Assembly: GCA_964016885.1 (NCBI GenBank)
Contig: OZ024743.1
Location: forward strand, 111,414,001 to 111,478,000
Origin: Eledone cirrhosa
Lineage: Eukaryota
Length of the DNA stretch: 64,000 bases
Direction: 5' to 3'
A model generated the notes under the pieces. That model worked only from the letters and a program-made list of their open reading frames with translations. It did not search any database and was not told where the DNA came from. A program made the position numbers and the translations under genes. Shown piece by piece: positions 34,860 to 58,440 of this stretch (its first letter is position 1; every line of letters starts with the position of its first letter).

Positions 34860-35056
34860 TAACGAAGGAGTTGTGGTAAGGAACGAGATGGACCATAACG
34901 CACCAGAGTACTCAATACTTAGGGTAGTAAAGTGGTTACTAGGAAAATGTATGACCCCGACGGCAGAGCTAAAGCCATTTCGACGGATATTTCTGGACTC
35001 CAGAAATAGGCGTCGTAACGGCTTGAGGTCTGCCGTCGGGGTCATGCATGTTCCTA
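34860..35056 (-). mobile_element. GC-rich hairpin mini-element (palindrome 34940-35056 plus tail), copy 1
   Basis: ~115-bp palindrome; homologous copies at 53205, 53465 and 58333; in (TA)n. Confidence 0.85.
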
Positions 35057-35074
35057 TATATATATATATATATA

Positions 35075-35620
35075 TCAAAGGTATATATTGAGTTAGAAAC
35101 TCAAAGTAGTCTCTTACAATTAAATAGCTCAAAGAAAGAGGTTTTTCTGAGCCGTGTAATATAATTGAATATAAAAGGGAGATAAACACAGATATAAACA
35201 TATAAGTCGGCCCCTTCAATTTTGTTGAGCTAATTTAAATGTCGTGTAAACTTGGCTGCTATTTTTAGTAGTGTACGCTAGACTCTGATGCCATGTGCGT
35301 TATTAATATTCGCACACTATTCAGTCTTCTGAGATAGTTAGAAGTGAAGGGTTTACAAATGTTAAACCCACTGATGAGCAAAGTATTGGTAATTCACTTC
35401 GCTAAAATTGCGAAACAGCCTACCAAAAGCTGTCTGGGTGTCTGGCAGTTGCCCAATATCAGTTTGTATTTCTTTTCTTGATTTATTATTTTAAATTGAG
35501 TGCAGGAAAACCCTATTGTTAATTGTTAGTATTTTTTTCACCCTAGTGAATCTGGTCCCTTACGATTTGAACACATATGTTGATATCTGTGTTTATCTCT
35601 CTTTTATATTCAATTATATA
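35075..35620 (-). mobile_element. Miniature PLE-derived element: tail 35075-35157, short arm 35158-35205, long inverted arm ending ~35620
   Basis: 35158-35205 is an inverted copy of ~35575-35620; contains a canonical hammerhead; flanked by (TA)n. Confidence 0.7.
35366..35439 (+). ncRNA. Canonical type-I hammerhead ribozyme
   Basis: accca-CTGATGA-gcaa...ttgc-GAAAC-agc(ctaccaaaa)gct-GTC-tgggt; all three stems pair, GUC cleavage triplet. Confidence 0.9.
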
Positions 35621-35723
35621 TATATATATATATATATATATATATACATACACACATTACTTTATCGTTCTATAACCTGTTCCAGTCGATATACTGACGC
35701 TATAATGAGGAACCGCCATTCAG

Positions 35724-35815
35724 AAATATATAGAATGTTTCACGAATTTGAGTGTCATCCTTGCGCACGGACCATTGCAATTTTCACTGTATCGTTCCAA
35801 TTCTAGTATATGTAC
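35724..35815 (-). pseudogene. U6: U6 snRNA pseudogene
   Basis: Reverse complement GTACATATACTAGAATTGGAACGATACAGTGAAAATTGCAATGGTCCGTGCGCAAGGATGACACTCAAATTCGTGAAAC matches U6; ACAGAGA box mutated and 5' stem lost. Confidence 0.9.
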
Positions 35816-36779
35816 AATAGAACATCGGTTCACGATGTGACTCGAATTACGTTCTGCAGGCAAGCAACATCGATGGATTATCGGGGGAAACGCGTGTAGT
35901 TAGTTATTATAGTGTTATCAATCTGTCTTTCACACAGAGTCTCCTCCTCCTCCTTCTTCTTCTTCTTCTTCTTCTTCTTCTTCTTCTTCTTCTTCTTCTT
36001 CTTCTTCTTTGTCACCCATTATTACAGTAGTTTACTGCTATTGGTCTGGGTTTGTTTATTTGCTCGACAGTTGCTTGCTTATATCGCAACCAGCCATCAT
36101 ACTTGATGTCCGTATCGCTATCCGCCACCTCTAGCAGAACAGCTCTGCCGAGAAGTCTCGCTTTCAATGCATTTCTCTCGCAACATTCTGTATGTGAAAA
36201 ATAGCTTTGTTTTTCGTTCATTTCGTTTGATGCACGGGCTTCAGGAACGAATTAAATTTGTGCATATGTGAAATTAGTCATTAGCATACAGGATCATATA
36301 TGAATATTTATGATTATACTAGAATGTTTGTGTGCTTATTGAATTTTGTTTTCATTTTTTAGATTTAGATATTTTTAGACCGTCTTATTTTCCTCCATTT
36401 CTTTGTAGTTTTCCTTCTTCGATTTCATTCACAGTGAAAACAGGAAAAGGAAAATGATTTGTGAAAATATGCTTCGGGAAATTCTGGTAATATGAGGGTC
36501 TTCTTTAATAATTTCTTTGGGTTCCAAATCTGCTACGCCTGTAAAATCTATTGACTTGAGGCCAAAATTCTCTCCATGCCATCTTCAAACACTATTTCCT
36601 GTGTTAATATTGCTCCTTAGAAAGCAGTGCGTGTTTTACAAATCAAATATTTTCTCATCTAATATTTGTTTTGTACGAGTTATGATATTTTTTCCGGTGT
36701 AATTTTTATATGAATTTGAATTGTTTTACAATTATTATTTTATTCTGGTTTACATTATAAAGAACACTAGCAGAAAAAC

Positions 36780-55859: not shown

Positions 55860-56620
55860 TTTTGCAAGTGTAATGGATTGACGGACAGCTTCTTGTTGTC
55901 TTGAAGTCTCTATACGAAGGCGTTTGTATATGTTTGAATATACGGTGCTATATCAAAACTATACAACAAGGGTTTTGGAATCCGCTAATGGTGCGTCTCG
56001 TCTCCTCACCTCGTCATATACTTCTTGGAATTACCTGAAATGTGCAGCCAGGTTGCATTGTGGTATCAAGACTGGCGAGTGTAGGAGAAGTTTTCAGGGA
56101 TTTGCAGTTGACATATTGGTAATTATCCCGTCGGAATGTGATATCCGACATGCATTCAACAGGTTTGCCACCGAGTGCTGCCCGACAGGAAGGAACACCC
56201 GTGCTGCAAAGACTCAGGTACTCATTTAAACCTGGGTTGTGCACTCTACATGTGAGTGGAGTTCCACTGATGCAGGCGAAGAGGGCGAAGCCAGAAAGTT
56301 GATTTAAATGCAATATTTGCTGGAACTGGTAAAATATTGCCATATTTTCGCATTCGTTCATTAAAAGAACGGAGATAGGCGTGAAAGCCTAACTTGCTAC
56401 CTTCAGTTCAATGTTCCCTTACACATACTCCTAAATAATAGGTAATGACGGAAGAAATATGTTCGGGAATACAAGAGACCGAAATGGGGTTCCTCTGTAG
56501 GGTCTTGGAGTAATGTTACTCGATAGGCTCCATAGCGTAGGGCCAATACTTCTTGGAATTGGTTGATCACAGCTCCGATACTATTGACACGTATTAGAAT
56601 GTCGCAGAAACGAATCTAAT
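55860..56620 (+). pseudogene. Decayed RTE-type LINE fragment
   Basis: Homology to 44410-44810 (gcactctacatgtgagtggagttcc; ttggagtaatgttactcgatagg; gatcacagctccgat). Confidence 0.6.
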
Positions 56621-56789
56621 TTAACTGAAAACCTAATATCGCAACATCAATTGAATAGTGAATAAATTGCTTATTCTTGATAGTCCTTTAGACCTAACAT
56701 GGAGTTCCTCACATTTAATTACATTAATATTAAAATTTCATAACGAATTATGATGTGTTTTTTTTTATACCTATACCAACTTCACTGTA

Positions 56790-56857
56790 TATCCCATATT
56801 CATAAGTGTATGAATTAATGTATATACATTAATTCATTCACTTACGAATATGGGATA
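56790..56857. repeat. 68-bp near-perfect palindrome followed by a ~26-bp direct duplication
   Basis: atcccatattcataagtg.atgaattaatgtat|atacattaattcat.cacttacgaatatgggat. Confidence 0.88.
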
Positions 56858-58332
56858 AACATTTGCTTATGTAATTCATATTAAATACACATATGCTTAT
56901 GTAATTCATATTAAGAATCTACACAGTCGTAAAGCTCTTTAGTAAACCATCACTGCTAATTATGCATTTCATCCTTAATTATTAAGTAACACGATTGTAT
57001 ATAGCCACACTATAATTCAGGGCATCAATTAAACAGACGACCGTACACCATAACACACTCCCTTGTTAGATTTTCTGATTTGAATTTGCCACTAGATATC
57101 ATAATTCAGCAAGCCGTTATTATCAAGCCACTTTATGTTTTCTACTCCTGATTTTCTATCATAATAAAGTGACTAATTTGCCTAATATTAATTATGTTAT
57201 TTTATCTATTGCATACCTATTAATGCGGAAACACTTATCATTTACTGTTGTGGCTTTTGGGCTGTTTTGATTCTATTTCAGTATATTGTTTACCTATCAG
57301 CAATATATGTACTTCACATGCTTACACGAAATAAAATATACCACATTATAGCAAATCAAAAATCATACTTCTTCGCAATGTTTAACAGGTTGTACATCTC
57401 GCTTTCTATATTCATTAATAGTCTATATTCAACATTTGAGGATATCAATATTGGTATCGTCAAATGTATTTTTATTGAATTTAATCGCTCTTAGTAATCG
57501 TAAATGTTATGCAGGTGATATATTGTGTAAATAGTTATTAGATAAAACTGATTGATTATTTGTTTGCATATACACCTGTATAGAAACGAAGGTAGATATT
57601 AAATATTGTTTTATTTTCAAAACCTTGGTTCTATTCGGTTTAAATATTTATGGTATGTTAACCTCATTGACCTCAACAAATAGAACCTTAAAGTGCAGAA
57701 TATTATTTCGATTGTTTTGAATCCCTTACGTGCTGTAGACATTAAGTGCGCATTGAGCTTCTCTAACCTTACCAAAATTGTAATCAATTCCAAATATATA
57801 TATGTATATATATATATATATATATATATATATATATATATATATATATATATATATATATACCAACATTCCTCTCTTTTGCCCCCCTCTCTCTCTCTAT
57901 GTTCCTCTATCTTACACTACTACCCCTTATTTCATTTCCTAAGGTCAATCCAACTTTGTATTTTGAAAATTCGCATGCTACAGTATCTTTCTTGATTGCC
58001 TATTATAACATAGTGTAGCAATAATGGACTGACATTCTGATGAAACAATTGTTAATACGTGGATTAAATTCTTTTGTAACTGTTTACCTTCGTCCTATTT
58101 CTCTTCTTTGATTACACTCATCGTTTGTTCGTGTTTCCACTACAGATTCCCTACCAACCTGTCGAGTCACGTTAACGTATGTTGAGAACTTTCCTCACAA
58201 CTTGTTCTACTAAGCTTTGGAATACTCCTAATAACTGAATATATATATATATATATAGAGAGATAGATATATGTATATATATATATATATGTATATATAT
58301 ATATAAATATATATATATATATATATATATAT

Positions 58333-58440
58333 ATAGGAAAGAGTAGGACCCCGACGGCTGAGCTCGAGCCGTTTCGACGGCTAATTCTGGAATACGGTGC
58401 GTTATGGTCCATCTGTTTCCTTACAACATTTCCTTTGTTA
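58333..58440 (+). mobile_element. GC-rich hairpin mini-element copy 4: inverted arm only plus partial tail
   Basis: ataggaaagagtaggaccccgacggctgagctcgagccgtttcgacggctaattctgga joined to ggtgcgttatggtcc...ttcctttgtta. Confidence 0.8.

Follow-up and report, generated by a model that had tools for sequence, protein, structure and literature searches.

Hairpin copies in the window

The window analysed here is a 64,000-nucleotide stretch of the Eledone cirrhosa genome (assembly GCA_964016885.1, contig OZ024743.1, positions 111,414,001 to 111,478,000 of the forward strand), and the feature under study is a short element present in it as four related copies. These copies, which lie where an earlier note on this DNA had placed them (34860, 53205, 53465 and 58333), carry part of a predicted hammerhead ribozyme, and three of them form hairpins. 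The hairpin feature is real, its motif count being far above chance. Our reading, to which we give a probability of about 0.78, is that each hairpin is a pair of ends of a Penelope-like element (PLE), extremely shortened and joined head to head after priming from both strands of the target.

Copies 1 to 3, which span 34861-35057, 53205-53400 and 53466-53660, each have a unique tail of 80 nt and, after it, a hairpin whose two arms are ~58 nt long. In coordinates of the parent element, in which the G of GAAAC is 0, the tailed arm of copy 1 (34858..34999, minus strand) runs from -18 to +123 and ends in (TA)n at site 1, and its tail-less arm (34999..35057, plus strand) runs from -16 to +42 and ends in (TA)n at site 2 (TTCCTA). 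Copy 2 has a tailed arm at 53202..53342 (minus strand, parent -18 to +123) and a tail-less arm at 53342..53400 (plus strand, parent -16 to about +42), the latter adjoining another repeat rather than (TA)n. Copy 2 is there fused to a 47-nt piece of that repeat (53400-53447), and the same piece lies beside (TA)n in loci L046 and L113. The tailed arm of copy 3 (53463..53600, minus strand, parent -14 to +123) includes a bulged hairpin just past site 2, and its tail-less arm (53601..53661, plus strand, parent -18 to +42) is the 3' half of a hammerhead, in the order stem II 3' strand, GAAAC, stem III, GUC site and stem I 3' strand; the predicted fold of copy 3 is a near-perfect duplex. Copy 4, at 58334-58441, forms no hairpin: a single ribozyme arm without tail (58333..58394, minus strand, parent about -19 to +42) is followed by a very short tailed piece, the last 46 nt of the tail (58396..58442, plus strand, parent +77 to +123).

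The description of the copies as hairpins set in (TA)n thus needs two amendments, copy 4 having one ribozyme arm only and copy 2 being flanked on its right side by another repeat. The earlier note had correctly read the arm (GAAAC, stem III, GTC site, GGGGT) as the 3' half of a type I hammerhead. It had, however, put the centre of the fold-back at loop II and spoken of a ~200-bp element forming double-stranded RNA (dsRNA); the centre lies 14-19 nt ahead of GAAAC, within the 3' strand of stem II, and the duplex measures ~58 bp. The hairpin copies lack the 5' core and the 5' strands of stems I and II, which leaves the hammerhead core incomplete.

The copies belong to a very large family. A 31-nt arm motif had 34,633 exact matches in the 3.0-Gb host genome and the reversed control had none. 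Forty arbitrary 10-kb stretches (400 kb) contained 22 arm pieces in ~15 insertions, as grouped by eye with the sister family and old fragments counted in, and extrapolation gives an estimate on the order of 10^5 insertions, with a wide error.

The parent Penelope-like element

The earlier note had predicted a PLE parent with an intact CTGANGA core. A PLE parent exists, but its core is different. Searching for CTGANGA upstream of the arm gave 38 matches, none of which was the parent in register among the 25 inspected; the search missed the parent because the core of the main family is the variant UUGANAA. Some of the matches showed sequence running beyond the hairpin loop, and this sequence was used as an extension pattern, which matched 1,638 times, many of the matches being divergent pairs up to 3.7 kb apart that enclose reverse transcriptase (RT) and GIY-YIG frames. 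A protein search led from there to open frames of 784-795 codons. In tandem arrays with a period of 3542-3543 bp and 99.7-99.8% identity between units, the hairpin tail continues into the 5' untranslated region and then into an intact 718-aa open reading frame (ORF), contiguous with the arm, that encodes RT together with a C-terminal GIY-YIG domain (YRDD at residue 348, IY..YIG at 606). One near-identical array (L196/L197, G000:C1:91.47-91.49 Mb) has at least four units, with frames that are open, and a tandem repeat of 55 bp comes after it. Another (L202) has at least three units with one frameshift common to all of them, which suggests copying from one template.

The parent protein carries the motifs of the Hydra clade of PLEs: DKT at 117, CNCPDRSIC (CxCX5C) at 572, CNLC (CxxC) at 670 and CKH (CxH) at 698, together with an N-terminal RLRWR at 35 in which R conservatively replaces the K of the Hydra RWK. 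The GIY-YIG core lacks the cysteine pair, in agreement with the description of the Hydra clade (PMC8557442), and has one cysteine (595) between IY and YIG. By eye the likeness to the published Hydra reference proteins is clear. Neighbours of the protein in the ESM Atlas are similar in length, and some have GIY-YIG or RVT_1. Pfam gave no match for the intact parent proteins and a weak GIY-YIG match (E 0.069) for a fragment. The hallmarks of endonuclease-bearing (EN+) PLEs are present as well, namely tandem or partial-tandem pseudo-long terminal repeats (pseudo-LTRs), an inverted 5'-truncated copy and a one-sided tail, and the insertion target of the family is (TA)n. Judged by protein motifs and layout, assignment of the parent to the EN+ PLEs with Hydra-clade motifs is well supported.

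In the available part of the account of the Hydra clade (PMC8557442), its members likewise have one ORF with RT, a C-terminal GIY-YIG and the same DKT, CxCX5C, CxxC and CxH motifs, a (TA)n target, a hammerhead near the 3' end, partial tandems, an inverted 5'-truncated copy and a one-sided tail. The parent differs from them, as far as that part goes, in having RWR for RWK, a unit of 3.54 kb where theirs is generally <3 kb, and a tail of 80 nt where theirs is 30-40 bp. The hammerheads in File S2 of the same source, as far as available, all have CTGANGA and short stems, whereas the parent has a U3-A8 core and a long stem II. The parent family is also distinct from Hydra-1_Obim, which is 2,507 bp long and has a different ribozyme.

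Several other classes were considered. The Naiad clade was ruled out, since Naiads carry an N-terminal endonuclease, and readings as DIRS elements, a parvoviral hairpin or Helentrons were dropped in view of the PLE ORF contiguous with the arm. Non-LTR retrozymes are defined, in the portion of 10.64898/2026.07.22.740005 that was available, by non-coding tandem units with a full hammerhead in each; the tandem unit here is coding and the hairpins lack a full hammerhead core.

Two ends, one tail and distinct junctions

Given the parent, we compared the arms of many insertions. Seventy loci around exact arm matches were taken in order along contig C1 (from the first 100 matches listed, the last few left out), and the pair sample comprised 54 divergent pairs, 49 of them short. 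The 3' ends of 158 arm pieces concentrate at two places, +42/44 (60 pieces) and +122/123 (64 pieces), and contigs of the public run X2, the kind of which is not on record, have loose ends joined to TA at these two positions as well. TAT is common to the target and both sites, and a bulged hairpin of the same shape lies 4-6 nt past each site. Exactly one arm is tailed in 52 of the 54 pairs. Of the 49 short junctions, 48 are distinct. The earlier note was right that the hairpins are made at each insertion.

The expectation that arms would cluster by copy and not by side was likewise borne out: there is no fixed difference between the sides, and in the 40 of 52 pairs that had enough sequence, arms of one copy differ by 2.15 positions and arms of different copies by 5.6-5.8 (0 of 10,000 permutations). 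The variants that the earlier note had called copy-specific turned out to be subfamily markers that recur in many loci, private variants being one-armed in 40 cases and two-armed in 2. Differences between arms showed no excess of A-to-G changes: of 81 that were polarised, 3 were A>G and 22 were G>A. In longer copies neither arm is consistently contained in the other. The tail-less arm of L089, L090, L094 and L095 holds ORF sequence that the tailed arm lacks, L119 and L157 have the longer arm on the tailed side, and in L199 both outer ends lack the tail. Copy 4 of the window and loci L105, L106 and L129 combine a tail-less arm with a tail fragment only.

We propose that both strands of a cut (TA)n target would prime reverse transcription of the element RNA at two fixed RNA sites 80 nt apart, and that both cDNAs would stop near the same point and then be end-joined head to head. 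The hairpins would be dead by-products rather than a self-propagating element. Their origin from two cDNAs is well supported, and the double priming and end-joining are the steps that would best account for it.

The earlier note had favoured a different course, in which a single cDNA, stalled in stem II, snaps back and serves as its own template. Clustering of arms by copy fits this, some junction inserts resemble short self-copies, and the arms are of the same subfamily in 27 of 30 pairs (19% expected), a result that snap-back predicts and that counts against our reading. However, snap-back gives no reason for a second arm to end exactly at site 2, and it is contradicted by the non-subset arms of the long copies (L089, L094 and L095 being hard to reconcile with it), which argue for two cDNAs. 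It is also contradicted by L172 and L174, in which the arms come from two subfamilies and two templates are therefore needed. The insertions made of a tail-less arm and a tail fragment speak against it too, and we regard it as quite unlikely. Homopolymer inserts of 12-17 nt (A/T) between or before the arms of L113, L117 and L194 possibly reflect slippage on the TTT before AGTCC.

Two other explanations seem less probable still. A miniature inverted-repeat transposable element (MITE), or another non-autonomous hairpin element replicating as a unit, would have fixed outer ends, as seen here, and 30 inspected loci among the best matches to copy 3 are 96-100% alike, most with the same junction; yet those loci were selected by identity, and the copy-3 junction recurs in two subfamilies (L001 and L180). 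All sequence maps to the PLE end, and the distinct junctions, the single tailed arm per pair and the clustering by copy together refute a MITE origin for the bulk of the insertions, although a minor amplified subset could exist among them. We give equally little credence to the shrinkage of long palindromic insertions by later central deletion. A continuum of long palindromes exists and some junctions have microhomology, but deletion does not explain why two families should have a single boundary, copies that are young and near-identical are short already, and single arms abutting TA start at the same place.

A stop zone inside stem II

At their 5' limit, 106 of 139 arms stop 11-22 nt before GAAAC; these include a peak of 38 at 17-18, and 13 of the 139 run past 60. 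In the arbitrary 400-kb sample 12 of 22 arm pieces end in this zone and none passes 60. Summed depth of X2 contigs, a rough measure, is 2.9 million within the arm and declines to 0.56 million by -19 and to 0.16 million by -43. In a sister family whose stem II differs, the stop is, by eye, at the homologous place. The peak is at the A of T(T/C)AGT(C/T)C, which is conserved in both lineages and which we take to resemble the initiator motif TCAGT.

One reading is that the stop zone is the RNA 5' end, transcription starting at the A of T(T/C)AGT(C/T)C in stem II, and that the arms are run-off ("strong-stop") cDNAs; we hold it tentatively, as close to an even bet. The alternative keeps the twin-primed origin and concerns the stop step only: the cDNAs would stop where RT pauses in the folded hammerhead, either in stem II or at a contact of loops I and II through the conserved UUAGUYC. 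This is a substantial possibility, if somewhat short of even. The stop zone does lie in the 3' strand of stem II, and of 100 arms reaching -18, 61 still agree with the parent at -19. The peak, however, lies beyond the strong proximal helix, where pairing is weak and AU-rich or absent, the same peak appears in the sister family in spite of its different stem II, and arms that pass the zone mostly run far on (13 of 14 past 55). The conserved initiator-like motif at the peak, together with the promoter located in the Penelope pseudo-LTR (PMC2377424, in its available part), narrowly favours run-off at a transcription start over pausing.

Other results weigh against a transcription start. The zone is broad (11-22 nt), as pausing would have it. 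Copying of the cap should leave a non-parental G, and in 100 hairpin arms the non-parental base before AGTCC was G in 21, C in 15 and A in 3 (this and the following tallies were counted by eye over the first 100 rows listed); but among the controls, single arms abutting TA, G was found 24 times against 42 for C, and before GTCC 12 times against 8. The tally in hairpins is suggestive, but the single-arm control does not bear it out, with (GA)n and (CA)n flanks as well as a templated C acting as confounders. In long copies, a set chosen for ORFs, 15 of 16 upstream pseudo-LTRs with an arm extend beyond -18. Lastly, the sole RNA run among 7 public runs did not cover the arm (share 0.07), and contigs cannot show starts.

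The hammerhead of the parent end

For the parent end of L196 the minimum free energy and centroid structures both give the junction of a type I hammerhead, in which UUGAGAA, GAA and one C are unpaired. When the named hammerhead structure was imposed on 30 chosen ends of several subfamilies, 92.2% of the cells were paired, a value reached in 0 of 500 shuffles, and slid controls gave 27-48%. Three stem II pairs change on both sides; these changes reflect few lineage splits and their number is not above that of shuffles (378/500). All four bases occur at position N7 (72 rows parsed out of 85, the rows not being independent).

Among 100 main-family cores listed of 5,658, 76 are U3-A8, 24 are C3-A8 and none has G8. 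Among 100 sister-lineage cores listed of 260, 88 are U3-A8, 8 are U3-G8 and 4 are the canonical C3-G8. Among the cores listed, the canonical CUGAGGA was found in the sister lineage only, the main family having UUGANAA. The 3-8 pair is hence Watson-Crick in the C3-G8 and U3-A8 copies, a wobble in the U3-G8 copies and broken in the C3-A8 subfamily, into which copy 3 of the window falls by its arm marker. These counts suggest a path from C3-G8 through U3-G8 to U3-A8 and on to a broken pair in one abundant subfamily (24 of the 100 listed cores; L195, L201, L203 and L207). The abundance of a subfamily with a mismatched core suggests that cleavage may be dispensable.

Several findings count against an active ribozyme. 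Shuffled sequences fold as stably as the parent end (z -0.36), Rfam finds no hammerhead in window 52900-58600 or in the parent end, and RNAalifold on the 30 ends prefers a different weak fold in which GAAA is hidden in a hairpin. The genome shows no footprint of cleavage, 2 of 158 arms starting at the ribozyme cut site. The parent end is a putative ribozyme. Around GAAAC, from -7 to +8 of the parent end, a conserved alternative hairpin (GCCGU-CGAA-ACGGC) would hide GAAA when the 5' half of the ribozyme is missing and is a possible switch.

Other elements

Elements of other families were seen in passing. In the window, a 336-nt inverted repeat (98%) at 2996-4904 flanks another PLE ORF fragment (3344-4549), which is 34% identical to the parent protein over the C-terminal part and has the same two-armed layout but belongs to a different family. 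A 141-nt inverted repeat (99%) at 6298-6617, set in AT-rich DNA next to (TA)n, has CTGATGAGGAC in each arm and probably represents a palindrome from a further PLE family with a hammerhead. At 56784-56863 there is a near-perfect palindrome of 80 nt that is rich in AT. Elsewhere, L053:1112-3454 is a 781-codon RT frame of another PLE clade, and L046:620-690 has a canonical CTGACGA hammerhead-like motif of another family.

Discussion

In L1 twin priming, two priming events at one target break yield inverted parts that do not overlap. The hairpin parts described here, unlike L1 products, overlap and form a palindrome. In LTR elements, minus-strand strong-stop DNA is a short cDNA that runs off the 5' end, and these elements use a tRNA primer and an integrase. 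The arms would resemble strong-stop DNA as short run-off cDNAs, but neither a tRNA primer nor an integrase is involved here.

A close parallel is Poseidon PAc of Anolis. In vitro, two internal RT start sites bound its tail, both target strands are cleaved and extended, and ribozyme cleavage is not needed for insertion (available part of PMC11167929). Those start sites are not homologous to the cut DNA, whereas here both ends share TAT with (TA)n, and that part of the source derives neither inverted repeats nor a fixed 5' stop from these features. The ribozyme has its own precedents in the PLE hammerheads of PMC4209133, including the U3-A8 motif of Schistosoma Cercyon. As given in the available part of that paper, these share with the parent the type I topology, U3-A8 covariation, the G10.1-C11.1 pair, a palindromic loop III and motifs in opposite-strand pairs. 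They are minimal, without helix III, and need dimers, whereas the parent has a 5-6-bp stem III and a long stem II; the series C3-G8, U3-G8, U3-A8 and C3-A8 in one lineage is a feature of the parent, unlike the motifs in that part of the paper.

Going by the accessible parts of these sources, published work already contains the inverted layout with one tail (PMC8557442, PMC2377424), a pair of start sites (PMC11167929) and the U3-A8 core (PMC4209133). In a literature search whose coverage left out most subscription papers, no paper was found that traces PLE palindromes to twin priming or to strong-stop cDNA, and there was no relevant match on cephalopod Penelope inverted repeats with editing, on template switching in inverted PLEs or on C3U/G8A variants.

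The observations can be combined in a further model that we think improbable as a whole, though worth setting out. PLE transcription would start inside the element's own hammerhead, which would disable the 5' ribozyme and preserve the cap but leave the 3' ribozyme able to cut, and the 41 nt from start to cut would be a terminal repeat. RT would begin near the 5' end and run off as strong-stop DNA, and long copies would require a jump to the 3' end like that of LTR elements; the ~100,000 hairpins would be failed jumps primed from both target strands. If true, this model would explain pseudo-LTRs, tails and inverted repeats by one mechanism.

How PLEs form tandem and inverted insertions is stated as open in the available part of PMC8557442. 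The family described here offers intact parents together with an estimated 10^5 minimal insertions that have two fixed ends and one stop zone. The stepwise change of the 3-8 pair, including a broken pair in a successful subfamily, bears on the need for cleavage, and in the host the hairpins may be a large source of dsRNA in introns.

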